Source of the DNA: Candidatus Moraniibacteriota bacterium
GTDB lineage: Bacteria; Patescibacteriota; Minisyncoccia; Moranbacterales; UBA2206
Length of the DNA: 64,000 nucleotides
Direction: 5' to 3'
Assembly: GCA_049303795.1 (NCBI GenBank)
Contig: JBAQNM010000005.1
Span: 222,381 to 286,380, forward strand
The position numbers were made by a program, and so were the translations under genes. Position 1 is the first letter of the stretch. Each line of letters opens with the position of its first letter. The notes beneath the pieces were generated by a model, which saw only the letters and a list, made by a program, of their open reading frames with translations, ran no database searches and was not told where the DNA came from. Positions 13,493 through 45,632 of the stretch are shown here, piece after piece.

Positions 13493-13837
13493 TCATTCTA
13501 ACACTTCCCGCTGGTTGCAAAAACTGCAATCTTCCCCGATAACAACTAGCGTTCGTTCGATAATACCGACTAGACGCAAAAAATCATGACTAGAGCCTTG
13601 AAGCTCTATGCAAGTTCTGGCCTCTTGTCGTTCTGTAAGCAAGATTTCAATTTTCCGGTCTTTTCTCCAAATGCTACAACCCATGATAATTCCTCCACTG
13701 CCTCCAATATGTCCCAATGCCGATCCGCCTTGTATTCTTTCATCATATTCGACAACAATGCCACACGCCCTTAGGGCGTTAACCACCTCGATAACCGATT
13801 CAGCCACGAAAATTTCATGCCAATGATGCTTTTTCAT
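13493..13837 (-). CDS. hypothetical protein (Gly-rich HIGGSGGIIMG loop, C-terminal CSFC)
   Basis: ORF only; no family recognised. Confidence 0.3.
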   Translation of the reverse strand: MKKHHWHEIFVAESVIEVVNALRACGIVVEYDERIQGGSALGHIGGSGGIIMGCSIWRKDRKIEILLTERQEARTCIELQGSSHDFLRLVGIIERTLVVIGEDCSFCNQREVLE

Positions 13838-14050: not shown

Positions 14051-14413
14051 TCACTTCAACATAGAGGAGATTTTAGTCACAAGTTCTTCATCAGAAAATG
14101 GCCTTTCCAGGACGCCACAGCCTTCTGCGGTAGCGATGCTCCGCTTGCTGCTCACGCCAGAAATGCAAAGTATTCCGATTGGTTCTTTTTTTCGTTGAAT
14201 CTTTTTGACTTGATTGATATGATTAACCCCATCGGTAATTGACATTGTAAAATCAATCACGAATAGATCGACTTTGTTGCGAGGAGGATTTGTTTCGTTA
14301 AACTCAACAACTTCAAATCCTAGCTCAGTAAGAACATATTTGAGCGAGCCTGATTCACCTTTAACTAAGACGATGACTTTTTTCTTACTTCCCTTTTTTT
14401 TGGCCACTATCAT
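14051..14413 (-). CDS. stand-alone receiver (REC)-like domain protein, atypical N-terminal acidic pocket
   Basis: CheY-like layout: ..DLFVIDFTMSITDG.. (Asp at the phospho-acceptor position), ..GILCISG.., C-terminal ..GCGVLERPF; the N-terminal DD pocket is replaced by KGES. Confidence 0.5.
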   Translation of the reverse strand: MIVAKKKGSKKKVIVLVKGESGSLKYVLTELGFEVVEFNETNPPRNKVDLFVIDFTMSITDGVNHINQVKKIQRKKEPIGILCISGVSSKRSIATAEGCGVLERPFSDEELVTKISSMLK

Positions 14414-14452: not shown

Positions 14453-14659
14453 TTAAAACCATCGAGATAACGCCATTATTCTATCAACAAACCCTGAAGG
14501 CTTGTCAAAACCACTTGCTTTTTTGCAATTATCGCAGACGGCATGATCAGCATTTTCTTCATCTTCAGGGCTAAGTGAAACATGCACCCATACTTTATTT
14601 TCATTTTTCACTCGCCCGCAAAATGAGCAGACGAGAATTTTCTTGTTTGGATTAGTCAT
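14453..14659 (-). CDS. small zinc-ribbon protein (CxxC..CxxC)
   Basis: CSFCG and CDNCK pairs in 68 aa; overlaps the upstream REC gene by 4 nt, suggesting translational coupling. Confidence 0.45.
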   Translation of the reverse strand: MTNPNKKILVCSFCGRVKNENKVWVHVSLSPEDEENADHAVCDNCKKASGFDKPSGFVDRIMALSRWF

Positions 14660-15033
14660 ACCTCCTCCTCGAAATTAAACCGCCCGGGAAAGATCCTTTC
14701 CAGTTCTTGCTTGAAGTCATCGAAGTTGAATTTGCTTCTTAAAAATCCATTGCATCCATTTTCCAGATAATATTTCCGATGAAATCCAGAACTTGAAATA
14801 CCAATGATTTTTGTTTCCGGCTGAATCTCACTAGCCCTCTTCAAGAATTCAACCCCCTCTCCATTAAACATTTTCAAATCAATAATCAGCAAATCCACTT
14901 TTTCTTCAGAAATAACCTCCCAAGCCTTTTGGCAATCTAAGGAATAATGAAATCCATAATCTTCTTTTGATTTTAAAAATTTCTTTATAGCACTGACCAA
15001 TCGGGCCTGACCACAAACCAATAAAATTTTCAT
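14656..15033 (-). CDS. stand-alone receiver (REC)-like domain protein, DD pocket missing
   Basis: CheY-like ..VDLLIIDLKMFNGEG.., ..IIGISS.., ..GCNGFLRSKF; N-terminus is LLVCGQ instead of the DD motif. Confidence 0.55.
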   Translation of the reverse strand: MKILLVCGQARLVSAIKKFLKSKEDYGFHYSLDCQKAWEVISEEKVDLLIIDLKMFNGEGVEFLKRASEIQPETKIIGISSSGFHRKYYLENGCNGFLRSKFNFDDFKQELERIFPGRFNFEEEV

Positions 15034-19496: not shown

Positions 19497-20084
19497 AGTT
19501 TATTTATTATTAATTATTTATTAATTACTCCTCTGAAAAGCTTGCAAAAGATTTGCAAACTATCGACCAGAGGTTCCAGACACTTTAGGTAGTCTTTGTT
19601 CACCCTCGACCAAGAATTGACTTTTGGTTTTCACCAATTAAATTTTTTAAACCCTCCTCTTGGAGGCACTTGCCCTTCTCTCGCGAAGGGCTTAAGTTAT
19701 TTAATTGAATAAAGAACAAAAAAAGCCAATCGTTAATTGTTATATTAAAATAACAGTCAACGATTGACTTTCAAAAGAGGAAACATTATTTCTCACCCAA
19801 GAAAATAATTCCATATCTTTAATTTACTAGCTATTCAGATTTAATTTATTTTTATAATTTTTCACTCCTAGGGCAATACTATCATTTCGAGATTTATTGT
19901 CAAGGAAAGTTGTCCACAGTTTTGGCTTGACAAAAGGGAAATTTGTGGTTTAAATTATTTTTGTGAAAATCTATCCGTAGTTTTTTTGACAAAACACATT
20001 TCCAATGCTTAAATATCACATTCGGTTCTTTTTAACGCTATTCAGCGAAATAGCACCCATACTAAACTTTTACAAGGAGACATC

Positions 20085-20450
20085 ATGATTAAGCGAATGA
20101 CGAATTTGACTCTTGCGGAGATAAGAAGACTACTGGAAGGAAAAGATCTCTCCCCCTGCAAAGGCAGTGCCAAAGGAATGATCTCAAACACACTTCCTCC
20201 TGGTGCGCTGTTAAATGAAATCGGCGCCATATTTATTAATGGCGACAATGAAGCGGAGAGTGATCTGGCTTCGCTCTTCGAAGGTGAATCTCATGGAACT
20301 AAATGCCTGGGTTACTTTTACCTTTCACAAAGAAGGCACGAGCTGGAACTAAAAACCCTCGACTTGATCATAGAGTTCGAAAGCGACCCCGCTAATGCGG
20401 AAACTATCGATTCTATAAAAACATTGATCAGGGCCCAATCCGGCAGATAA
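20085..20450 (+). CDS. hypothetical protein, GC-shifted, with a strong Shine-Dalgarno
   Basis: AAGGAGA 6 nt upstream of ATG; about 45% GC versus about 35% in the surroundings. Confidence 0.4.
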   Translation: MIKRMTNLTLAEIRRLLEGKDLSPCKGSAKGMISNTLPPGALLNEIGAIFINGDNEAESDLASLFEGESHGTKCLGYFYLSQRRHELELKTLDLIIEFESDPANAETIDSIKTLIRAQSGR

Positions 20451-20480
20451 AAATCGCCATCTCTCTTAACCAAAACCCAC

Positions 20481-20583
20481 GCCCGAGACTAACGTCCCGG
20501 GCTTCTTTATTTATAAACTCACGATGTTACAAAAAAATAAAAGCCCATACCGCAATGCGATATGGACTTCGTTTTATTTTTCG
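20481..20583. terminator. two hairpin and T/A-run terminators serving the convergent genes 20085..20450 (+) and 20601..21761 (-)
   Basis: gcccg..cgggc followed by ttctttattt, and a second stem (cccataccgc..gcgatatgg) flanked by A-run and T-run on both sides. Confidence 0.5.
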
Positions 20584-20600
20584 AAAAAAGGCAGATAAGC

Positions 20601-21761
20601 TTAACGCTCAATGCCCAGTTTTTTAAGGATTTCCGGATCTGGGAAATTGTCGAACTGCATGCCAAATGACAATCCCATCATATCCAGAAGCTCCCCAACT
20701 TCTTTCAAGGATTTACGGCCAAAATTTTTCGTCTCCATCAAGTTCTCTCTGGTTCTTTGAGCCAGCTCACCGACAAGCTTGAAACCTCCTCCTCCGCCAC
20801 CGAGACAGTTTTTTGCCCGGATTGACAGATCAGTTTCTCCGATCAAGGTATACAGCCCCTCTACCGGAAGAACAACCCTTATATCTTCCTTGATGATCGG
20901 TGGGCCGCTGGCTATTATCTGATACAGCCCTTGCAATTTATTTTTTCTTACCAGATATCGCAGTTTCCGGAGGGCTTTATGGAAAATCTGCCTGATCCTT
21001 TCTTCGGTAACCATCAAATCATCCCCTATTGCAGAGTAAGTTTTCTGCTCACAGCCAAGGCCACAACGTCTCCTGACTACCAGGATTTCCCGCTTAGTTA
21101 AATTTTCCAGCACGCTTTCGATAGTGCTAACGGCATTGAGTTTCTCATCCCAGATCGCTCCGATCTTTCGCCTTTGCGAGTTGGCCCAGCTTTTTCGCAG
21201 ATCTTTTTTGAGATCTAGCGCATTTTGCGGGACATCCGACTCATCACTTTTCGTGTAAAGATTGAGATTATCATGCCAAAGCTCAGAAGCCTCATCTGAT
21301 TGGTTTCTGCCAAAAATCATTTCAATCAGATTAACATAAGTCTGATCTTCGGCTCTGGCTTGAGGTCGGCTCAATGTCGAGGCAATATCATCGAGAATCA
21401 AAAACTCTTTTTCGACCTCCTCGATACCTAGATACTCTCCCAGCAATTCCTTGAGCATATCATCGAGATCGCTTGATATTACAAGCTTATGACGCGCAGT
21501 CATCAGACATGCATAGAACTTCAGCGCCGATGCGAAAACCTCCTCTTTAGTTTTCTTTTTAGTTCGCTTTAATCCAAGGCGATCAAGATCCAACCTAAGT
21601 GTTGTCGGATTGAGATTCAACCTCTCGGAAATCCAACGGCTTGCGATGCCGATGGAATGAAGAACTGCGATGATTGGATGCCTTTTTTCCTGGTTATCTT
21701 TAATTTCTCCCATCTTGATATCCCCTTTTCCATGAGTATGATTGAGTGTTATGAAAATCAC
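20601..21761 (-). CDS. chimeric transcription factor: sigma-70 region 3/4-like segment fused to an RNA polymerase alpha-subunit C-terminal domain (alpha-CTD)-like domain
   Basis: LTKREILVVRRRCGLGCEQKTYSAIGDDLMVTEERIRQIFHKALRKLR matches sigma-70 region 4.2. LSIRAKNCL..LVGELAQRTRENLMETKNFGRKSLKEVGELLDMMGLSFGM..NFP closely matches the alpha-CTD helix-hairpin-helix of E. coli ([48 protein letters not shown]..NWP). No sigma region 2 is seen. GC-shifted. Confidence 0.6.
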   Translation of the reverse strand: MIFITLNHTHGKGDIKMGEIKDNQEKRHPIIAVLHSIGIASRWISERLNLNPTTLRLDLDRLGLKRTKKKTKEEVFASALKFYACLMTARHKLVISSDLDDMLKELLGEYLGIEEVEKEFLILDDIASTLSRPQARAEDQTYVNLIEMIFGRNQSDEASELWHDNLNLYTKSDESDVPQNALDLKKDLRKSWANSQRRKIGAIWDEKLNAVSTIESVLENLTKREILVVRRRCGLGCEQKTYSAIGDDLMVTEERIRQIFHKALRKLRYLVRKNKLQGLYQIIASGPPIIKEDIRVVLPVEGLYTLIGETDLSIRAKNCLGGGGGGFKLVGELAQRTRENLMETKNFGRKSLKEVGELLDMMGLSFGMQFDNFPDPEILKKLGIER

Positions 21762-21940
21762 TTATCCGTTTTTTTATATATTCATTTGTTCAGGTACAAT
21801 CATCTATACTAACGCGTGATAGTAACATAATTATATAAATTTGTCAAACAAAAATTTAACTAGTAAAAAATTTCTTGAGTAAAGTTTGGCTTAATGATAA
21901 TATAATAGAAAGTAGGCATACTTAAATTAATCTTACCAAG

Positions 21941-23713
21941 ATGACAAATGACAAAAAAAATCTCAACAGTACCGAAATAAAAACTACTAATGCTGACCGA
22001 ACAAAAGCCAAAAAAGATCCAACGGAACAAAGATCGGAAAAATTGGACAAGATTAATCATAGCTTGTCTTCTTTTAACGCTCAAAATAATCAAAATATTG
22101 AAGAAGTTGAAAGTACTAGAAAACGAGAATTTGAAAGCAAGCTAGATCAACTAGGAATTGCAGAAATTCCAGTCAGCGAAGAAACGAAAAAGTTGATTCG
22201 TCAAAATATGGTGAGCGATACGATTGATCATGCGAAAAAAGAAAACGAACGTTTCGATCGACTTAAGATAGACAAAATAATTCTAGAGAATATAGACCAG
22301 CCAGATTCACAATTGATAAAAAGGCTTTTCGCAAAAAATGATGCTGAAATATCTGAAGATGTATTTCATAAAAGTCTAGAAAAATTAAGCAAGACAAATA
22401 TAAAATTAGAACCTCGCGAACGAATAGAAATTTTCCGCGAAGCGCTAGAATATTTTAGTAGGGAGGAAAAAGTGATCTACCCTGTTGGTCATGCTACAGG
22501 CTCTGATTCTCTTAGAATGATCATAAAAGATGGGTCTATTAAAGAAGGTGGCACCGGAGAACACGGAGAAGCTGCGGGACAATCTCGCGGAGGAAAACAG
22601 CAAGGCGTTTCCGTGGCGGAAATGAATCACGAAATGGCCGATTATGTCGAAATTTTTTATGCAAGAATGGCAGCAAATAGAGAAATTACAAAAGAAGCAT
22701 TAGAAATTGACGCAGATATTATTGATGGAAAAAATCCAATAGAAGACTTTATAGAAATTTATGTAGAGTTTACAGACACTGATAAGCTTCTAGGATCCAT
22801 GGCGAATAGAAGTGATAATGATATTGATTCTATAAAACTAAAAATCGCTCAAGAAATTGGAAAAAAACCTCGTGAAATAACTCATGAAGATATTAAAAAA
22901 AGCAAAATACTAGAGGAAATACTTTTTGGCTTCATAAAAAAAGCGGCGGGAAGAAAGCACTACATGACTGCAGAAAGAGCAAGTAGGGATTATGTCGCAT
23001 TTGATTCTATTATTAAAAACTGTGAGAAATGTAAGAATGGTGAATTTCCCGAAATAACCTTTAATGGAAAAATATATAAAGATCCTGATGAAATTATTAA
23101 TCTAAAACATGGAATATACGAACTTGAAGATGATGATCTGCCAGAAAAGAAAATACTGATTGAAATGCAGAACGAATACGCCTATTTTCTTCGACCATAT
23201 TTTGATCAAGAAAGTGGAGAATGGATGGAGCCACGCTATTCCATTTCTGAATTTAGATCTAGGAGTAGTGAAATATTGGGAGAATATGCAAAATGGATAA
23301 AAGAAGGAGAAACTTTCAAAACATTAACGATGCTTCACCCGCTAGAAAGCGACTCCGAAGATGTAAAAAGAAAAAAAATAGCGAGATTAAAGGAATTAGA
23401 TAATCAATTTCCTAGCATATTAGTCATTGAAGCAGATGAATATAAAAAAAATGGCCTAACGCATACGGAAAAAGAAGGAAGTCGTCCAGTCCCCTTTTTT
23501 GAGGTTGAAGAAAGAATTATGTCTGATATTTCTCTTTCAAACATTAAAGAAATAATAATTCCAAGATCAAAAATCGATGAAATAAAAAAGTGGCTGACAG
23601 AATCTGGAATCAAAGAAAACAATATGCCAAGAATGGTCGCATTTGAATACTTTGAAATTAAACGCCTATTAAACCATCAATTAAAAGAGCTTACAAGAAA
23701 AATCCAAGCGTAG
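21941..23713 (+). CDS. hypothetical 590-aa Lys/Glu-rich protein
   Basis: Long ORF with no recognised family; the stop codon overlaps the 3' end of tRNA-Glu on the opposite strand. Confidence 0.45.
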   Translation: MTNDKKNLNSTEIKTTNADRTKAKKDPTEQRSEKLDKINHSLSSFNAQNNQNIEEVESTRKREFESKLDQLGIAEIPVSEETKKLIRQNMVSDTIDHAKKENERFDRLKIDKIILENIDQPDSQLIKRLFAKNDAEISEDVFHKSLEKLSKTNIKLEPRERIEIFREALEYFSREEKVIYPVGHATGSDSLRMIIKDGSIKEGGTGEHGEAAGQSRGGKQQGVSVAEMNHEMADYVEIFYARMAANREITKEALEIDADIIDGKNPIEDFIEIYVEFTDTDKLLGSMANRSDNDIDSIKLKIAQEIGKKPREITHEDIKKSKILEEILFGFIKKAAGRKHYMTAERASRDYVAFDSIIKNCEKCKNGEFPEITFNGKIYKDPDEIINLKHGIYELEDDDLPEKKILIEMQNEYAYFLRPYFDQESGEWMEPRYSISEFRSRSSEILGEYAKWIKEGETFKTLTMLHPLESDSEDVKRKKIARLKELDNQFPSILVIEADEYKKNGLTHTEKEGSRPVPFFEVEERIMSDISLSNIKEIIIPRSKIDEIKKWLTESGIKENNMPRMVAFEYFEIKRLLNHQLKELTRKIQA

Positions 23714-23782
23714 CCTCAAGGGGAATCGGACCCCTGTTTTCAGGATGAGAACCTGATGTCCTAGCCGCTAGACGATGAGGCC
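23711..23782 (-). tRNA. tRNA-Glu (anticodon CTC)
   Basis: Reverse complement reads GGCCTCATCGTCTAGCGGCTAGGACATCAGGTTCTCATCCTGAAAACAGGGGTCCGATTCCCCTTGAGGCTA: 7-bp acceptor stem, D-arm, anticodon loop TTCTCAT and T-arm GGTCCGATTCC. No encoded CCA. Confidence 0.85.
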
Positions 23783-23825
23783 AATAAATTTAGTACTAAG
23801 TAGAGTTTATCTTTAGTTGGACGAT

Positions 23826-23913
23826 AGACCTGCCCGCAATGCTACGCCCGCCAGCAACGCTTCGCGTAGCAATGCGGGCTGGCATAGCGTTGCAGGCGGG
23901 CGATGAGGCCAAT
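23826..23913. repeat. GC-rich nested inverted-repeat (pseudoknot-topology) element followed by a 13-nt direct repeat of the tRNA-Glu 5' end
   Basis: 16-nt stem A (23832-47) with A' (23864-79), and 16-nt stem B (23845-60) with B' (23887-902), each with one mismatch, arranged A-B-A'-B'. cgatgaggccaat occurs at 23773-85 (the tRNA 5' end) and again at 23901-13. Confidence 0.6.
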
Positions 23914-24119
23914 GAAACATATTTTAAAATAAAACCTACAAAATTCAGTTTAGCAACAATCTTTAAAAATATCAAGAGTTTAAAAATTGCATTGGTTAAT
24001 ATATTCTGACTTGCTTCGCCATATTCAATAAATAAAAAACAAGCATTATCTCAACCAAGATAACGCTTGTTTTATTTTTTCAGCCAGATTAAGACCCAGC
24101 TAACTCATCAATCCCTAAT

Positions 24120-27100
24120 TTATTTTTTGTAAGAAAGATAGAGTTTATATCCACGATATTTTTTGTAGAGCTTGAGATCATTTTGAGTTTTTAGGCTCAA
24201 CTTGATAATCTCTTTATTTCCAACTTTTTTATATTGCCCATACACCGCCTTTAATCTTTCGAACTCCGCCATATTTGTTGTTCTGAGATTTTTTACTTGG
24301 GCATAGATAGCTTTATTAGCAGCGCTCTTATATTTTCTTTTGTATTCCTTGTATAGCTTACATTTTTTTCCACAAGAATCGTCATTATCATTACTATTGC
24401 TACTTCCACTACTTATTGAAGGCGTGCTTGACCCTGAAGCAAATTTGGTCGCATGGTTCGTTTGGAATGTACAATTTCCGCCACTTACTAGGCAAGTTGT
24501 TTCCAAATTCCAAGCAGTTTCACCATCAAATTGATAATAAACATTAAGTGTTTGGCCGTTATAGGCTGTTCCAACTGGAATAGTAATTGTAATGGCTGGA
24601 TTAAATGTAAGTCTAATGCTTGGCAAACCAATCCTGATTGCACCTGCTACATCAGTTGTTAAATCATTATTAAGATTGACTGTCACATCCTCTATGGTCA
24701 TCAGGGCCATATTTATATTTCCTCCTCCAGTTTTAGTCATTTCCGTTCCCGCTGGAAAAAATACGGTAGCGTCTCCTGTTTCCAATGTGAAATCAACATT
24801 AAATGTAATTTCAGGAGTATCAGTCGGATCTCCGCCTTCAGCACTAATATCTCCGACTAGAAAAGCGCCTTGCATTTTATCTCCAGCGCCTGAAGCTGAA
24901 TAATTATATGTTTCTTCCATGACAACTCCTTTGTTTCCAACATTATCATACGAGACTGCTTTCAAGGTTACTGAATCATGATCACTAGAAAGGTTGATGG
25001 TAATTGGACCAGAGACAGCGTCATCTTCATCATCCGGTTCACTTCCATTTAAGGTGTAATAAGTACCAGTAGCATCTCCAGCAACGTTGATCGTGACTAG
25101 TTGAGAATAGGCGTAGTCGCCACTGGCAGGAGAGGCGGTTGGGGCATTTGGACCATCCCCATCAATAATGAAATTTGTAACCCAAGAACTTGATGTATCA
25201 AATGAATTTCCAGCTAAATCCTCAACTGACACAGCTATTCCGGTTGCCTGTGAGGTATCAACATTTGTAAAAATACATTTTCCTTCGCCACTATCATAGG
25301 CGTCTGTCACTGTAATAGCAGAACTAGCTCCATTATTTACTGAATAACGACAAGTTACAGGATTAATTCCTGATCCAGTGTCAAAAACCGGAGCAGAGAT
25401 TGTGGATAAATTAGAAATAATAAATGGATTACCAGGAGTAAATGGAGTAATTAAAATTTCTCCTACTATCGGCGCAACATTAGTATCAACATCAAATGTA
25501 TGACTTGAATCTTCGACCATCTCATTACCAGCCTCATCTTGAGCCACACTAATAGTTATTGTTTTTGTTTCAAATGTATCGGTCGGCACAGCATAGTTAA
25601 AGAAAAATTCTCTTTGGCCAGGACCTTGCTGAGTAACAGATTGAGCATCACCGCTTACTGTAATTGTCGGGGTATAAGAAATATCCTCATCAAATATTAC
25701 TGTTATTTTTTGAGGACTTGATGTTGATGAATCATAGCTAGCTCCGTCTGAGTCAACTGAAGAAATGGTTGGTTTAGTTGTATCAATCACATATGATCTG
25801 TTATAGCCAAGTGAATGTTCTGAATTAGGAGTAGCCAATTCCAATACTGCATCATTGCCAGCCTCGTCCATAATAGTGCCCGCGAAATCATGTGCTGCAC
25901 GCAAAGCATCAGTACCACTATAATCAAGATTGGCTGAAGCATCTCCTGATATGACAGTATATTCAAATACCAGTGTATCCGTGCCAGATCCGCTCGTATA
26001 ATTCACCCATCGATTATTTTCCGTAACCCACAGAGCTAATTGTGGAGTGCCTGTCACGTTAACATTTTCACTAAAAGAAATTTCGATTGGTATCACAGTT
26101 CCAGCTCCATAAGTACCAACGGGATAGACTGATGTTACATTCGTAACTGTTGGCGCGATATCCTCAAAAAATTTCATTACTGTAGCTTTATTGCTATTTG
26201 CACCGTCCCTAAACATAACATAGGGTTTATTTGTTATCGGATCAAAGGCAATTCTGACCCTAGAAGCACCATATTCGGAAAACCCATCAACTCCGACTTT
26301 TGACCAATTTAAACCATCATATGTTGCTACTACAGCTTTATTATCATTATCATTATCAGTATAAGACACATATACATTATTACTTACTAAATCAAATGCA
26401 ATATGTGGGGTATATTTAGTGCCTGTTCCACCACCCCATAATCCATCTCCAACATTAACCCAATTAGAGCCATCAAATTTTTTTATTCCCTCAGCACTCC
26501 CTCCTCCACCATATTGATAGACGACATATGGTTCATCGGTATCAGGGTTAAAAGACATAGATGGATATCTTCCGTTTGTATTATTTAGTGTTTCTACATC
26601 ACTTCCAACTTGAGTCCATACTCCGCTATCTAATTTCATCACTATTATTTTATGATAAGTATTTACCCAATTATCATCATCCTGGTATTCCTTCTCTATT
26701 AAAACATATGGATCTTTGGCTATTGGACTAAAGGCGATTTGCCAAGTATCGTAACGAAAATTAGTAGCACTGTTTTCGTCATCCACATCAACATTTGTGC
26801 TTGCCCCACCAATATCATCCCAGTCTGAAGTTATTTCGTTGAATTTTTTTATACGAGCACCATGAAGTGTTAATGATGCATCGGGAATTCCCATAACATA
26901 GACCTCTTCCGTTCCTGGTTTAAAAGCTATTGATGCATAGCTCTCTTGTGATAAATCAAACATACGACTACCTACATATTCCCATGAAGTGCCATCGAAC
27001 TTCATAACACTTGTTTCTTGTGGTGAAAAAGCCCCAGTACTATCTCTGAAAGCCACATATGGTTCCCCCGTAATAGGATTAAAGGCCAAGGAAGGCCAAG

Positions 27101-27413
27101 GAAAATCTGTACTCCCTTCATTGAAACCAACATTGCCAACATTAACCCAGTTGCTACCATCATATTTCATAACAGAAATAAGGTTGGATGTTCCATCAGC
27201 AAATACAACATATGGCTCATTAGTAATTGGATTAAATACAATATCTCCATTATTAGCCACTCCTGTTCCAAATCCAGCTTGTCCAACAACTCCCCATACA
27301 TTTATTTCTGCTTTTGCCTTTCCGATTCCGCCAATAAAAAAACCAGCCACCAAAAAAACAAAAATGACTGACTTAATTAGAGCACAATAAAACTCTTGAT
27401 TTTTTTGTTTCAT
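24120..27413 (-). CDS. 1097-aa secreted cell-surface protein: beta-propeller-like repeats, Ig-like/beta-sandwich domains, Lys/Tyr-rich C-terminal tail
   Basis: Signal/anchor helix; about 8 repeats of NPITxEPYV.F.D...SVMK.DGSNW..VG (propeller blades); C-terminal KKCKLYKEYKRKYK...KKYRGYKLYLSYKK. Confidence 0.55.
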   Translation of the reverse strand: MKQKNQEFYCALIKSVIFVFLVAGFFIGGIGKAKAEINVWGVVGQAGFGTGVANNGDIVFNPITNEPYVVFADGTSNLISVMKYDGSNWVNVGNVGFNEGSTDFPWPSLAFNPITGEPYVAFRDSTGAFSPQETSVMKFDGTSWEYVGSRMFDLSQESYASIAFKPGTEEVYVMGIPDASLTLHGARIKKFNEITSDWDDIGGASTNVDVDDENSATNFRYDTWQIAFSPIAKDPYVLIEKEYQDDDNWVNTYHKIIVMKLDSGVWTQVGSDVETLNNTNGRYPSMSFNPDTDEPYVVYQYGGGGSAEGIKKFDGSNWVNVGDGLWGGGTGTKYTPHIAFDLVSNNVYVSYTDNDNDNKAVVATYDGLNWSKVGVDGFSEYGASRVRIAFDPITNKPYVMFRDGANSNKATVMKFFEDIAPTVTNVTSVYPVGTYGAGTVIPIEISFSENVNVTGTPQLALWVTENNRWVNYTSGSGTDTLVFEYTVISGDASANLDYSGTDALRAAHDFAGTIMDEAGNDAVLELATPNSEHSLGYNRSYVIDTTKPTISSVDSDGASYDSSTSSPQKITVIFDEDISYTPTITVSGDAQSVTQQGPGQREFFFNYAVPTDTFETKTITISVAQDEAGNEMVEDSSHTFDVDTNVAPIVGEILITPFTPGNPFIISNLSTISAPVFDTGSGINPVTCRYSVNNGASSAITVTDAYDSGEGKCIFTNVDTSQATGIAVSVEDLAGNSFDTSSSWVTNFIIDGDGPNAPTASPASGDYAYSQLVTINVAGDATGTYYTLNGSEPDDEDDAVSGPITINLSSDHDSVTLKAVSYDNVGNKGVVMEETYNYSASGAGDKMQGAFLVGDISAEGGDPTDTPEITFNVDFTLETGDATVFFPAGTEMTKTGGGNINMALMTIEDVTVNLNNDLTTDVAGAIRIGLPSIRLTFNPAITITIPVGTAYNGQTLNVYYQFDGETAWNLETTCLVSGGNCTFQTNHATKFASGSSTPSISSGSSNSNDNDDSCGKKCKLYKEYKRKYKSAANKAIYAQVKNLRTTNMAEFERLKAVYGQYKKVGNKEIIKLSLKTQNDLKLYKKYRGYKLYLSYKK

Positions 27414-41128: not shown

Positions 41129-41641
41129 ATGACAAGCACAATCGTTCTGGCCCTTTCCTTTGGAAAAGGCAATGGAAGAGGAGCAAATAAGGCGAATAAG
41201 CTTATCGCCGAAAAAGCTACCTCTCACGCGAAAACCTTCAATACATTTATTTTTGCTGATGCCAGCGTCCCAGTCAGTGAAACGGGATGCGATTCATACC
41301 GGATCATCGGAAGTGGTTGCAAGATGAAGCATGAGTCAACTGTGACCCTTTTAGAATCAGCTCTTTCTCTGTATGAAGATTCTTCGACAAAAGAAGAAAT
41401 CAGAGACATACTTATCTTTACCGCTCCACAATACTTAGCAAGAGTAGTTCGCGACGGACGAAAAATTTTCAAAAACACCGACGTTTTCGTCCATGGCACG
41501 TCCATCTTTTGGGAAAAATGGTTTTATCCCGACTCCACGCAACTCTGGACCACCTCTTTTTGGTTTTGGTGGCCAAGAGAGCTACTCATCAAGGCATTGC
41601 CCTGGAAAGCCTATTACTGGCTTTCCAAAAACGCATTATAA
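41129..41641 (+). CDS. hypothetical protein, moderately GC-shifted, strong SD; possibly DUF218/YdcF-like
   Basis: AAAGGAGTGCCCT-ATG; N-terminal ..TIVLALSFGKGNG.. glycine-rich region and Trp-rich C-terminus; family not confidently recognised. Confidence 0.35.
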   Translation: MTSTIVLALSFGKGNGRGANKANKLIAEKATSHAKTFNTFIFADASVPVSETGCDSYRIIGSGCKMKHESTVTLLESALSLYEDSSTKEEIRDILIFTAPQYLARVVRDGRKIFKNTDVFVHGTSIFWEKWFYPDSTQLWTTSFWFWWPRELLIKALPWKAYYWLSKNAL

Positions 41642-41882: not shown

Positions 41883-44800
41883 TTGCAAACCCCTTGGATT
41901 TTTCCGGGCGATGAAGATAGCCAAAAAACTATGTCTGAATCAAAAATAAAGTTTTCCCACCTTCACGTTCACACGCATTATTCTTTACTTGATGGTCTTT
42001 CTAAGATTGACGAACTGCTTGATCGCGTTCAAGAGCTTGGTATGGATTCTGTCGCCATCACTGATCATGGTGTGCTTTATGGTGCCATTGAATTTTATAT
42101 GAAAGCCAAAGCGCGAGGCATCAAACCAATCATTGGTTGCGAGATGTATCTCACACCAACTGATTTGCACAGTAAGAATCCTGACTCGGCTGATCGCAAA
42201 CGACATCATCTAATTCTTTTGGCGAAAGATGAAACCGGTTATAAAAATTTAATGCGCCTAATCACAATCGCTCACCTGGAAGGATTTTATTATAAACCAC
42301 GCATTGATAAAACTGTTCTGCGCTCTCATGCAGAAGGTCTGATTGGCCTCAGTGCTTGTGCTGAAGGTGAAATTCCTTTCGCTGCTATTTCCGGCCAGAT
42401 GGAAAAAGCAGAAAATTTGGCGCTGGAATATCAAGAAATTTTTGGTGTGGGTAATTTTTACTTGGAAATCCAGCACCATCCAACTTTTCCCTCCCAACAA
42501 ATTGCCAATGATGCCCTGATAAAAATTTCCCGAAAATATAACATTCCGCTTGTGGCCACTAATGATATTCACTATGTAAAAAAAGAAGATAATTCCATCC
42601 AAGATATTTTATTGTGCATCCAAACTAATCGCAAAGTTGAAGACAAAGACCGTATGAATTTAATGGATTTTGAACTCTATTTGAAAAGCCCGGAAGAAAT
42701 GGCGGAACATTTCAAGCACGTTCCGGAAGCATTAGCCAACACGCAAGATGTTATTGATAAATGCAACTTGGAAATTCATCTGGGCGAAACTCAACTCCCC
42801 TATTTTGGAGTGCCAGAAGGTGAAACAACTGAAACTTATCTTCGCAAAATAACCGAGGAAGGAATGATTAAACGCTTTGGCACAGACATCCTCCAGGGAC
42901 ACAAAGATCGCATGGAATATGAACTTTCTGTTATTGAAAAAACTGGCTTTGCCTCTTACTTTCTTATTGTGCAAGATCTGATCAATTGGGCAAAAAATCA
43001 AAATATCATTGTTGGTCCAGGCAGAGGTAGTGCTGCTGGTAGTTTTGTTTCCTACCTAATCGGAATCACCAATCTTGATCCAATCAAATACGAGCTACTT
43101 TTTGAAAGATTCCTCAATCCAGAAAGAATCTCGATGCCTGATATCGACATGGACTTTGCTGATGACCGGCGCGATGAAGTTTTGGAATACGTAAGACAAA
43201 AATATGGCAATGACCATGTAGCTCAAATTATCACGTTTGGAACAATGGCTGCTCGCGCTGCCATTCGCGACACCGGCCGAGCGTTAGGCATTCCCTATGA
43301 TTTTTGTGACAAAACTGCGAAGCTAATTCCCATGTTTTCTACAATCGAAGATGCTCTGGAAAATGCCAAAGAATTCAAGGATCTCTATAATACAGGTGGC
43401 GACGCCAAAAAATTAATTGATAGCGCCAAGCGTTTGGAAGGCGTGGTGCGTCATGCTTCAATGCATGCTTGCGGTGTTGTAATTACACGTGAACCAGTCA
43501 CGGAATATACCCCGCTTCAAAAAATGCAAGGCAAAAAAGAAGGTTCCGTTACTCAATATTCCTCCTCAACTAAATCTAGTTATGTGGAAAAAATCGGGCT
43601 ACTCAAGATGGACTTTTTGGGACTCAAAAATCTCACAATCATGCAAAATGCCTTGCGGATATTAAGAAAAACTAAAGGCTTGGATTTGAAGATTGATGAT
43701 ATTCCTGAAGCAGACGAAAAAACTTTCAAACTTCTGCAAAAAGCCCAAACGACTGGAGTATTTCAGTTGGAAAGTTCCGGCATGAAACGTTATTTAAAAT
43801 TATTAAAACCCACTGTCTTTGAAGATATTATAGCCATGGTAGCTCTTTACCGCCCAGGACCAATGGATTGGATTCCAGACTTCATTTCAAGAAAACACGG
43901 TGATAAAAAAATTGATTATTATCATCCAAAACTAAAAACGCTTTTGGAAAAAACTTATGGCATCGTAGTTTATCAAGAACAAGTGATGCAAGTTGCTCAA
44001 GCTCTAGCCGGATTCACTTTGGGTGAAGCGGATGTTCTGCGAAAGGCTATGGGGAAAAAAATCTTTGCACTGATTGCTGAGCAAAAAATAAAATTCATCG
44101 AAGGTTGTGTGGCGCATGGCACCGAAAGAAAAATAGCAGAAAAAGTTTTTTCTTTTATTGAACCTTTTGCTGGTTACGGCTTCAACCGCTCTCACGCTGC
44201 TTGTTATGCCATGATTGGCTATCAAACCGCCTATCTCAAAGCCCATTATCCGGCTGAATTCATGGCCGCCCTACTCACTTCCGATCAAGATGATATTGAT
44301 CGCGTTGCTATTGAAGTAACGGAATGTCGCGAAATGGGAATTGAAGTTTTACCACCGAACGTCAATGAAAGTTTTGAAGAATTTTCTGTCATTATTGATC
44401 CAGAAACAAAAATAGAAAAAATTCGTTTCGGCCTAAACGCGATTAAAAACGTTGGGCGCACAGTGGCCCATGAAATTGTGGAAGAAAGGAAGCGCAATGG
44501 AAAGTTTTTGAATTTAGGTAACTTCATTGAACGAGTTCAGTCAAAAGATCTTAATAAGAAATCAATTGAGGCTCTTGCCAAAGTTGGAGCACTGGAAGAT
44601 TTGGGCGAAAGAAATCAAATCGTTGCTTCCATTGAAAACATTCTTGCTCATGCCAAGGAACATCAGAAAAATCAATCTTCAAATCAAATCAGTCTTTTTG
44701 GAGTTTCTGAACTAGCTCTTCCAGAAATTCAATTAATACCAACTATCCCTGCCACAAAAAAACAACAACTGATTTGGGAAAAGGAACTGATGGGACTCTA

Positions 44801-45434
44801 TATTAGCGGACATCCCGCCAGTGAATTTCAAGCCTATTTTGAATATGCCGGAACACCAATTCGCGATATTGATAAAAACTTAGTCGGTCAAAACATAAGT
44901 ATTGGTGGAGTTATATCGAAAATTAAAAAGATTTTTCTTAAAAACCAAAAAACGATGCTCTTTGCAACCATTGAGGATATGTATTCCAACATCGAATTAC
45001 TTGTTTTTCCTAAGGTATTAGATGAAACCGGTTCAATTTGGGGTGAAGATAAAGTAATTTTAGCTTCAGGAAAAATTTCTGACAAAGATGGCATGTTTAA
45101 ATTATTAGTTGATAGCGTCAAAATTGTTAATCATGACGAGGTAGAAAATGCTTCACGTATTATTGCTACCAGAAAAAATCATGGCGAAAAAATTGAAAAA
45201 ATAGCTCCCATCACTTCTCCAGCAAAAATAGTTATCACTCTTCCTAATGATTCTGATCAAGAAATATTAAAAGCCCTTTCTGCACATTTCAATACTTGTG
45301 AAATTGGTCAAACAAAAATTTATCTAAAAATAAATAATACAAAACTAGAGACTCCTTTTTGTATCACGCAAAATCAAGATCTGGAAAATCAAATTAAAAA
45401 AATAATTCCCACAGCCTTGGTGGAAATTTTATAA
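41883..45434 (+). CDS. dnaE: DNA polymerase III alpha subunit
   Basis: PHP domain HLHVHTHYSLLDG, the polymerase core, and an OB/tau-binding C-terminus; 1183 aa. Confidence 0.95.
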   Translation: MQTPWIFPGDEDSQKTMSESKIKFSHLHVHTHYSLLDGLSKIDELLDRVQELGMDSVAITDHGVLYGAIEFYMKAKARGIKPIIGCEMYLTPTDLHSKNPDSADRKRHHLILLAKDETGYKNLMRLITIAHLEGFYYKPRIDKTVLRSHAEGLIGLSACAEGEIPFAAISGQMEKAENLALEYQEIFGVGNFYLEIQHHPTFPSQQIANDALIKISRKYNIPLVATNDIHYVKKEDNSIQDILLCIQTNRKVEDKDRMNLMDFELYLKSPEEMAEHFKHVPEALANTQDVIDKCNLEIHLGETQLPYFGVPEGETTETYLRKITEEGMIKRFGTDILQGHKDRMEYELSVIEKTGFASYFLIVQDLINWAKNQNIIVGPGRGSAAGSFVSYLIGITNLDPIKYELLFERFLNPERISMPDIDMDFADDRRDEVLEYVRQKYGNDHVAQIITFGTMAARAAIRDTGRALGIPYDFCDKTAKLIPMFSTIEDALENAKEFKDLYNTGGDAKKLIDSAKRLEGVVRHASMHACGVVITREPVTEYTPLQKMQGKKEGSVTQYSSSTKSSYVEKIGLLKMDFLGLKNLTIMQNALRILRKTKGLDLKIDDIPEADEKTFKLLQKAQTTGVFQLESSGMKRYLKLLKPTVFEDIIAMVALYRPGPMDWIPDFISRKHGDKKIDYYHPKLKTLLEKTYGIVVYQEQVMQVAQALAGFTLGEADVLRKAMGKKIFALIAEQKIKFIEGCVAHGTERKIAEKVFSFIEPFAGYGFNRSHAACYAMIGYQTAYLKAHYPAEFMAALLTSDQDDIDRVAIEVTECREMGIEVLPPNVNESFEEFSVIIDPETKIEKIRFGLNAIKNVGRTVAHEIVEERKRNGKFLNLGNFIERVQSKDLNKKSIEALAKVGALEDLGERNQIVASIENILAHAKEHQKNQSSNQISLFGVSELALPEIQLIPTIPATKKQQLIWEKELMGLYISGHPASEFQAYFEYAGTPIRDIDKNLVGQNISIGGVISKIKKIFLKNQKTMLFATIEDMYSNIELLVFPKVLDETGSIWGEDKVILASGKISDKDGMFKLLVDSVKIVNHDEVENASRIIATRKNHGEKIEKIAPITSPAKIVITLPNDSDQEILKALSAHFNTCEIGQTKIYLKINNTKLETPFCITQNQDLENQIKKIIPTALVEIL

Positions 45435-45447
45435 AAAAGTAACTTTT

Positions 45448-45521
45448 TTTTCAATGTGGGCGATCGAGAACTCGAATCTCGGACCTCGTCATTATCAGTG
45501 ACGCGCTCTAACCAACTGAGC
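45448..45521 (-). tRNA. tRNA-Ile (anticodon GAT)
   Basis: Reverse complement reads GGGCGATTAGCTCAGTTGGTTAGAGCGCGTCACTGATAATGACGAGGTCCGAGATTCGAGTTCTCGATCGCCCA: clean cloverleaf with anticodon loop CTGATAA. Confidence 0.85.
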
Positions 45522-45559
45522 TAATCGCCCGTAAATTATCAATATTATATATATTCCTG

Positions 45560-45632
45560 TGGACCCTATCGGGCTCGAACCGATCACCCCCTGCTTGCAA
45601 AGCAGGTGCTCTACCAAATGAGCTAAGGGCCC
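45560..45632 (-). tRNA. tRNA-Ala (anticodon TGC)
   Basis: Reverse complement reads GGGCCCTTAGCTCATTTGGTAGAGCACCTGCTTTGCAAGCAGGGGGTGATCGGTTCGAGCCCGATAGGGTCCA with G3:U70. Confidence 0.85.

Follow-up and report, generated by a model that had tools for sequence, protein, structure and literature searches.

The question raised by this locus is what a single protein could do with two promoter-reading parts of RNA polymerase (RNAP), and where its gene came from. The locus lies in a 64,000-nucleotide (nt) stretch of a Candidatus Moraniibacteriota genome, referred to as the window, in which the segment 20085-21761 encodes a protein that joins region 4 of sigma-70 (sigma-4) to the RNAP alpha subunit's C-terminal domain (alpha-CTD). 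These two modules read the upstream half of bacterial promoters and are the docking points of most activators. An earlier note on this DNA regarded the gene as half of a two-gene islet of phage or mobile-element origin, with an architecture not known from elsewhere. We found that the chimera is real and apparently unstudied, and that it is one ordinary member of a sizeable, database-visible family. Its gene, which encodes an N-terminal domain followed by sigma-4 and alpha-CTD, is called the fusion gene below.

The domain assignments were first compared with curated models. Both domains passed the Pfam cutoffs, which bears out what the earlier note had read from the sequence. In the numbering of the 386-amino-acid (aa) open reading frame (ORF), Sigma70_r4 (PF04545) matched residues 218-268 at 43.7 bits against a cutoff of 24.1 (E 1.9e-11), and RNA_pol_A_CTD matched residues 303-359 at 51.9 bits against 23.8 (E 6.2e-14). 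The Pfam scan returned no Sigma70_r2, Sigma70_r3 or extracytoplasmic function (ECF) sigma match, nor any other domain beyond these two, and the alpha N-terminal dimerisation and assembly domain (PF01193, PF01000) was likewise not found. The NCBIfam RpoA, RpoD and MzaA models aligned to the fusion protein only over their terminal 60-90 positions and far under their cutoffs; for the rpoA models, only the last 60-75 positions were matched, with 47-70 bits against cutoffs of 228-302.

Given the sigma homology, the protein might be a divergent alternative sigma factor in which the N-terminal domain takes the place of sigma-2 and the fused alpha-CTD provides its own UP-element contact. Profile comparison with hhalign located the sigma homology in residues 193-268 only, with 45% identity to group-1 sigma and a probability of 99.7%, whereas residues 1-190 gave a probability of 1.5% against sigma-70. 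This profile-profile comparison led us to reject a sigma-2 or sigma-3 hidden in the N-terminal half, and the absence of a sigma region 2, remarked on in the earlier note, is thereby upheld. Furthermore, the alignment shows no evident conserved aromatic or basic motif of the kind used for -10 recognition. We consider an alternative sigma factor highly improbable. With sigma homology confined to residues 193-268 and no alpha N-terminal domain, the fusion protein is neither a sigma factor nor an alpha subunit.

The extent of the gene required a correction. The ORF listing gives 20601-21761 on the reverse strand, 386 aa with a GTG start, and this is the protein that the earlier note described. The ORF is present, but the true start is almost certainly the ATG at 21713, judging from the GGAAAAGGGGA 7 nt upstream of it, the gene model of MFZ2193215.1 and the agreement with two orthologues, P0002 and P0003, at the N-terminus. 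The resulting coding sequence (20601-21713, reverse strand, stop codon 20601-20603) yields 370 aa and is identical to NCBI MFZ2193215.1. The Shine-Dalgarno (SD)-like GGAAAAGGGGA occupies 21721-21731 on the same strand, and an SD-like motif was present at all family loci examined, even where neighbouring genes had none. A consensus scan predicted a promoter-like site, TTGACA-17-TACTAT with an extended -10 TG, at 21819-21847 (reverse strand), within the block that is conserved in a sister genome. An intrinsic terminator with a 14-bp stem and a following T-run was located at 20540-20570 (reverse strand), and the same hairpin follows the sister orthologue. The locus tags flanking the gene are WAV31_03140 and WAV31_03150, in a metagenome-assembled genome (MAG) of Candidatus Moraniibacteriota, within the candidate phyla radiation (CPR/Patescibacteria).

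An alignment of 28 full-length relatives (A1) and an AlphaFold2 (AF2) model with a mean predicted local distance difference test score (pLDDT) of 87 divide the protein into five parts, given here in 370-aa numbering and all on the reverse strand. A three-helix helix-turn-helix (HTH) forms the N-terminus (residues about 1-50; 21564-21713). It has weak profile matches to DevR/NarL-type and Sigma70_r4_2/HTH_23 domains. Next comes an all-helical domain that is specific to the family and has no detectable relative (51-190; 21144-21563); among the curated models of Pfam and NCBIfam, none extends over the N-terminal domain. The sigma-4 module comprises regions 4.1 and 4.2 (193-262; 20928-21137); it is supported by PF04545, by hhalign and by PDB sigma-4 chains, which match it at E 1e-6 to 1e-9. 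A flexible linker (263-285; 20859-20927), with pLDDT < 50 at residues 269-282, leads to the alpha-CTD module (286-350; 20664-20858), which carries a lineage-specific Gly6 loop. Directly after the alpha-CTD is an RpoA-like tail, NFPDPEIL (351-370; 20604-20663).

We next consider how far this layout extends. In a full scan of 1.84 billion representatives, 408 were matched at E < 1e-10. Dozens of them are collinear with the fusion protein over its full length at about 30% identity, and full-length family matches had E values of 2e-59 to 1e-15. Local hidden Markov models (HMMs) were used to class 158 proteins (148 of the 150 listed representatives and 10 earlier matches), each standing for one 50%-identity cluster. 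The full order of N-terminal domain, sigma-4 and alpha-CTD was found in 75 of them, and in 3 more with a duplicated part; overall, the layout is common to at least 80 such clusters. The belief that the architecture is unseen elsewhere is therefore not sustained; indeed, the pair of Sigma70_r4 and RNA_pol_A_CTD is already precomputed for many database proteins. The hallmark of the family is an HTH, a helical domain, sigma-4, a linker and an alpha-CTD in 350-420 aa (alignments A1 and A3), and the fusion protein fits it. In 75 family members, the linker measures 18-98 aa.

Both domains occur together in 130 of the 158 classified proteins, in at least eight arrangements that include reversed order and alpha-CTD repeats. 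Two to four alpha-CTDs ahead of sigma-4, often together with an additional large domain at the C-terminus, account for 29 proteins; sigma-4 and alpha-CTD without the N-terminal domain for 14; sigma-4 with two alpha-CTDs for 5; and the reversed alpha-CTD/sigma-4 order for 3, one of them a Pelagibacter protein that has 137 near-identical members in the database. The remaining large class, with 26 proteins, has alpha-CTD repeats only and no sigma-4. The pairing has thus originated or been rearranged more than once, and such repetition argues for cooperation between the two modules. The Pelagibacter protein (279 aa; P0013/P0035) and the 700-1100-aa proteins with two to four alpha-CTDs, sigma-4 and a large C-terminal part (P0077, P0102, P0107, P0110) resemble the fusion protein in carrying the same two Pfam domains in one chain. 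In domain order, number of copies and accessory domains they depart from it; they are without the N-terminal family domain, and are unnamed and uncharacterised. P0077, P0102, P0107 and P0110 themselves have 760-940 aa; their alpha-CTD repeats number 2-3, the sigma-4-like HTH is single, and a C-terminal stretch of about 400 aa is conserved, with motifs such as ...LSVSGPIDVS.LR.G.GRS.RM.G..PPR.V...; they are a separate uncharacterised family built on the same domain pair.

None of the classified architectures has a specific name or a curated family model. Full-text literature searching, whose reach did not extend to the likeliest source, returned no paper on the fusion or the family. NCBI names MFZ2193215.1 generically after its alpha-CTD, and the label "alpha CTD domain-containing protein" masks a coherent family that deserves an annotation model of its own.

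Comparison with the RNAP subunits indicates what each module has retained. Like region 4 of group-1 sigma-70 (RpoD/SigA), the fusion protein has homology over regions 4.1-4.2, keeps E585, R586, R588 and Q589, and has the fold of the solved structures. Unlike group-1 sigma-70, it lacks regions 1.2, 2 and 3, and with them -10 recognition and the main surface for core binding. The window's protein has Glu as the equivalent of R584, and its C-terminal sigma-4 motif RHPSRS is changed to RYLVRKNK. As in RpoA, the C-terminal domain with its 265 DNA-binding determinant is present, whereas the N-terminal dimerisation and assembly domain is missing, the C-terminal domain is joined to sigma-4, and Gly6 is inserted after the NCL motif. 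The closest genuine RpoA shows 41% identity over 111 aa, spanning the inter-domain linker, the C-terminal domain and the tail GM..NFPDPE.LK; by this alignment the alpha module looks like a complete 3' end of rpoA. The best RpoA match, P0005, belongs to a different MAG. The window was searched for rpoA and rpoD as examples of the host's own modules and has neither. The six-glycine run (20783-20800; residues 305-310) replaces the K-x-x-x-I loop that follows the NCL motif of the alpha-CTD. The 81% orthologue has five glycines at this point and the 73% orthologue none, indicating a recent change in a surface loop.

To assess what these modules might contact, residue conservation was counted in 81 family members. 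The roles of the residues are established from work on E. coli and Thermus. The 265 and 261 determinants of the alpha-CTD are reportedly due to Gaal, Ross and Gourse, and sigma-4 with a -35 element was reportedly described by Campbell et al. in 2002. The 265 determinant, with which alpha touches the A/T-rich minor groove of UP elements, was nearly invariant: R265 was kept in 77 of 78, N268 in 66, C269 in 64 and G296 in 74 members; K298 was present in 65, with Arg in a further 11, and S299 was found in 65 members. Conservation was also strong at the -35-contact residues of sigma-4, with E585 in 57, R586 in 70, R588 in 61 and Q589 in 73 members, and with R584 in 43 and Lys in its place in 8. In the fusion protein, R299, N302 and K334 correspond to alpha R265, N268 and K298, and R241 and Q242 to sigma R588 and Q589. 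Among the residues through which alpha and sigma contact each other, D259 was acidic in 63/81, E261 was acidic in 57/81 and R603 was kept in 46/81. A contact between the alpha-CTD and sigma region 4 on UP-element promoters (E. coli rrnB P1) was reportedly described by Ross et al. and Chen et al. in 2003. The fusion protein resembles that complex in having the same two modules, largely kept contact residues and a linker that permits adjacent binding. It differs in that a single free chain, known from sequence, links both modules covalently, whereas in the holoenzyme they belong to two subunits.

Because the DNA-contact and mutual-contact residues are kept and the linker is long enough, we infer that the fusion protein is a DNA-binding regulator that reads a -35-like hexamer together with an adjacent A/T tract, with a probability of about 0.5. 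Sigma-4 would sit on a TTGACA-like hexamer and the alpha-CTD on the neighbouring upstream A/T tract, side by side as in the holoenzyme-promoter complex, so that the protein would read the upstream half of a promoter while outside RNAP. Since every known core-assembly determinant except the sigma-4 surface is missing, the most economical outcome would be competition with the holoenzyme at -35/UP-type promoters, resulting in repression or bookmarking. Activation by recruitment may be an alternative outcome. The N-terminal HTH and the helical domain could provide a second DNA contact, oligomerisation or signal input.

Several observations weigh against a DNA-binding regulator of this kind. DNA binding is a prediction, and no target motif could be derived. 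With R584 changed to Glu and the tail RYLVRKNK, the window's protein may have a specificity other than for TTGACA. DNA binding alone would not call for as much conservation as region 4.1 and the acidic 261 determinant show, and such conservation also fits a protein-protein role, e.g. contact with the beta-flap or with a regulator. Finally, as to the taxonomic spread, scans of genome contigs with alignment A2 and with P0074 gave no loci. A word-indexed profile search with the N-terminal alignment returned P0003 only, and a metagenome-contig scan for sister loci recovered the organism of one family locus (L006) again and nothing else. The hosts that could be named are Moraniibacteriota and, for the reversed architecture only, Pelagibacter.

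The conservation of protein-contact surfaces brings in the main rival explanation, in which the protein imitates RNAP by protein contacts. The sigma-4 copy would act on the beta-flap tip or on sigma-4 regulators and the alpha-CTD copy on factors that bind the alpha-CTD. In this way the protein would be a decoy that titrates regulators or phage anti-RNAP proteins, or it would replace or block sigma-4 on core. Its sigma homology does include region 4.1 besides the HTH, at 45% identity to group-1 sigma, and the tail RHPSR, which contacts activators and alpha, is kept in most members together with the acidic 261 determinant. In addition, phages encode stand-alone proteins with sigma-4 only and with alpha-CTD only, which suggests that these surfaces are contested. 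Sigma mimicry is moreover an established regulatory principle in PhyR. PhyR, found in Alphaproteobacteria, combines an ECF sigma-2/sigma-4-like part with a receiver domain and acts as an anti-anti-sigma factor on NepR. The likeness, as we see it, is that of a non-sigma protein using a sigma-derived domain for regulation; unlike PhyR, the fusion protein has a group-1-like sigma-4 only and an added alpha-CTD, with no Response_reg or ECF match. However, the DNA-contact residues are conserved at least as well as the protein-contact ones, and a pure decoy would have no need of them. Neither is there a defence-island context, and the neighbours are housekeeping genes. The similarity to MzaA of the MZA anti-phage system, by PADLOC and NCBIfam, is confined to sigma-4 (NF041931 at 50.9 bits against a cutoff of 800, over model positions 639-715 only). 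A decoy or appropriation mechanism found no support among the evidence collected, and we judge mimicry by protein contacts to be unlikely.

The proposal of a DNA-binding regulator can be widened to the family, which is large, uncharacterised and chromosomally inherited and has a predicted role in transcription regulation. It is conceivable, though on balance doubtful, that proteins with the N-terminal/sigma-4/alpha-CTD layout form a widespread and unrecognised class of trans-acting readers of promoter-upstream DNA that globally control strong promoters in regulator-poor CPR and other uncultivated lineages. Duplicated RNAP modules would then occupy -35/UP DNA or the matching surfaces of RNAP and regulators. 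A free polypeptide that joins both modules with their contact residues kept suggests an unstudied mode of promoter control. If true, this would be control by self-mimicry of the DNA-reading heads of the polymerase, which has no characterised precedent, and the biology would surprise transcription specialists. The family appears to be concentrated in uncultivated, regulator-poor bacteria, where transcription control is barely known. Since the protein is small and soluble-looking and the predictions for point mutants are clear, the idea can be tested directly in vitro.

We then turned to the origin of the gene. The fusion protein has the orthologues P0002 (81% identity) and P0003 (73% aa identity), the latter encoded in the sister genome L003. 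The earlier note had suggested looking for the segment in sister genomes, and the L003 orthologue was found at the same place beside tRNA-Glu. L003 DNA aligns to window positions 21856-20531 at 77% identity, a block comprising the fusion gene, its promoter-like site and its terminator. An upstream block shared with L003, containing genes for a CAP-domain protein, RecO, tRNA-guanine transglycosylase (TGT) and a U32 peptidase, has 80% DNA identity. The tRNA-Glu(CTC) at 23710-23782, which the orthologue adjoins, is 100% identical in L003. The L003 orthologue has also kept the SD motif and a raised GC content (0.425 against 0.362). The same place, the divergence of 77% against 80% and the same raised GC together indicate that the fusion gene predates the split between the window's lineage and L003. 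As judged by this comparison, it is an inherited chromosomal gene and not a recent island. Seven other family loci also sit among housekeeping genes (glycosyltransferase, fmt/def, rlmH, DUF5671).

These results bear directly on the idea of a recently acquired phage or mobile-element appropriation factor that would form a two-gene island with the convergent 121-aa gene. Some features are in keeping with it. The GC content of 44% against 36%, the third-position GC (GC3) of about 0.47 and SD sites in an SD-poor genome set the locus apart; the family gene is a compositional outlier in L012 and L006 as well; a tRNA with insertion scars adjoins the locus; and in L006, L007 and L013 the reading of a tail sequence places an IS30-like transposase fragment just downstream. 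Yet the sister orthologue holds the same position with divergence like that of the flanking genes, by which recent acquisition is largely refuted. The insertions at the tRNA are a 590-aa and a 1097-aa gene (in L003 a GIY-YIG gene), not the fusion gene. Furthermore, the 121-aa gene is unshared, and no direct repeats bounding 20085-21761 as an integrated element were found. Searches of phage, plasmid, PHROG and BFVD sequences revealed no relative with both domains or with the N-terminal domain. IMG/VR gave two matches, limited to sigma-4 and to ordinary sigma factors; GenBank phages gave single-domain matches only, mostly to bacterial rpoA or rpoD; the PHROG match was limited to sigma-factor region 4; and in BFVD no match had an E as good as 1e-3, nor did any combine the two domains. 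A recent mobile origin is thus very unlikely, and the earlier suggestion of one is not upheld.

The phage proteins form a separate observation. Uncultured Caudovirales (e.g. BFVD A0A6J5M7I6 and A0A6J5S254) encode stand-alone proteins that bear the annotation "RNA polymerase alpha subunit C-terminal" and measure about 130 aa, and phage proteins with sigma-70 region 4 only have about 95-135 aa. Phages were found to carry each module singly, and none with both was found.

The composition of the segment was as the earlier note had stated: at 44.1% GC against 36.3% for the window, 20085-21761 is the top 1677-bp stretch of the 64 kb in a GC scan (z = 3.1). GC3 was 0.472 for the fusion gene and 0.459 for the 121-aa gene, against 0.19-0.39 for nearly all other genes of the window. 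Across the family, the difference between gene and host varied in size and sign: +14 points in L012, +6 to +7 in the window and L003, -5 in L006 and none in L008, L009 and L011. The L012 gene (325-1488; P0069) stands at 0.582 against 0.447 with sharp edges, and the L006 gene at 0.354 against 0.405. Episodic lateral transfer of a single gene over long timescales, or a special expression regime, fits the GC shift and the SD motif. The raised GC, GC3 and SD reflect the history of the family or its expression regime and not a recent island in this genome. The P0069 gene in L012 is itself a single-gene GC island, with 0.58-0.61 against 0.35 upstream and about 0.44 downstream and a GC3 of 0.70, and is more pronounced than that of the window.

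The L006 organism has been assembled three times independently, and all three assemblies break off 70-183 bp past the family gene (L006 9063-9245, L007 3510-3579 and L013 9054-9202). The opposite-strand tail ...LNNRPRKSLNYLTPNE... at these assembly ends resembles the C-terminus of an IS30-family transposase, which would explain the breaks.

The convergent 121-aa gene (20085-20450, forward strand; GC 0.448) is an ORFan with the SD site AAGGAGA at 20074-20080. The earlier note was right about its convergent orientation, but the bidirectional terminator that the two genes were thought to share proved to be two separate hairpins, one per gene, in a 150-bp spacer. The hairpin GCCCGAGAC...GTCCCGGGC followed by TTCTTTATTT (20481-20502, forward strand) is the probable terminator of the 121-aa gene. 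Homology with L003 stops at window position 20531, between the two terminators and just past that of the fusion gene; the 121-aa gene is accordingly not common to L003. Its product had no Pfam, NCBIfam, PHROG or PADLOC match and found only itself among 5.8 billion proteins, and is restricted to this species. The possibility that it is a fragment or partner of the family was rejected, since neither the family nor the gene downstream of P0072 resembles it, nor do the other small ORFs that are GC-rich and carry an SD. With its own terminator and its absence from L003, this species-specific ORFan speaks against a two-gene islet; to judge by these comparisons it is a neighbour and not a conserved partner of the fusion gene.

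The stretch from the U32 peptidase gene to tRNA-Glu is an insertion hotspot. The fusion gene had been placed between a surface-protein operon and a tRNA-Glu with repeat scars; the tRNA is near and the repeat at 23901-23916 is real, but a 590-aa gene intervenes before the tRNA. This Lys/Glu-rich ORFan (21941-23713, forward strand; GC 0.338) lies between the fusion gene and tRNA-Glu, with a 4-nt overlap between its stop codon and the 3' end of the tRNA. Its product had no Pfam, NCBIfam, PHROG or PADLOC match. The gene is absent from L003, indicating a lineage-specific insertion at the tRNA. Also absent from L003 is the gene for a 1097-aa surface protein with CHB_HEX_C_1 / Fn3_assoc domains (24120-27413, reverse strand). 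The corresponding gap in L003 holds an 89-aa GIY-YIG gene (L003 7430-7699) flanked by a partial copy of tRNA-Glu. In the window, a 16-nt direct repeat (23773-23788 and 23901-23916; 15/16 identical) reproduces the 5' end of tRNA-Glu(CTC) at a distance of 128 bp upstream of the tRNA; it is probably a scar left by an insertion.

An AT-rich region downstream of the fusion gene was considered as a replication origin and rejected, as there is no DnaA-box cluster near 19500-20100 and the sign of the GC skew is constant across the window.

SD sites were present in the fusion gene (GGAAAAGGGGA) and the 121-aa gene (AAGGAGA), as the earlier note had said, and most genes of the window have none. They are not exclusive to the segment, however, as four other small genes carry them: 13493-13837 (AGGAGG), 14051-14413 (GGAGGG), 14656-15033 (AAGAGGG) and 41129-41641 (AGGAGT). 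Two of these encode receiver-domain proteins and two are ORFans. Three of the four (13493, 14051 and 41129, not 14656) have a GC content above that of the window, 0.40-0.44, with GC3 up to 0.456. The SD-bearing small genes may constitute a separately regulated or laterally acquired gene class.

Further along the window is a tRNA-Ile(GAT)/tRNA-Ala(TGC) pair (45456-45632, reverse strand). The usual place of such a pair is the 16S-23S spacer; by Rfam, the window contains no rRNA. The pair adjoins dnaE, the gene for DNA polymerase III alpha (41883-45434, forward strand), which lies on the minority strand and has an apparent TTG start.

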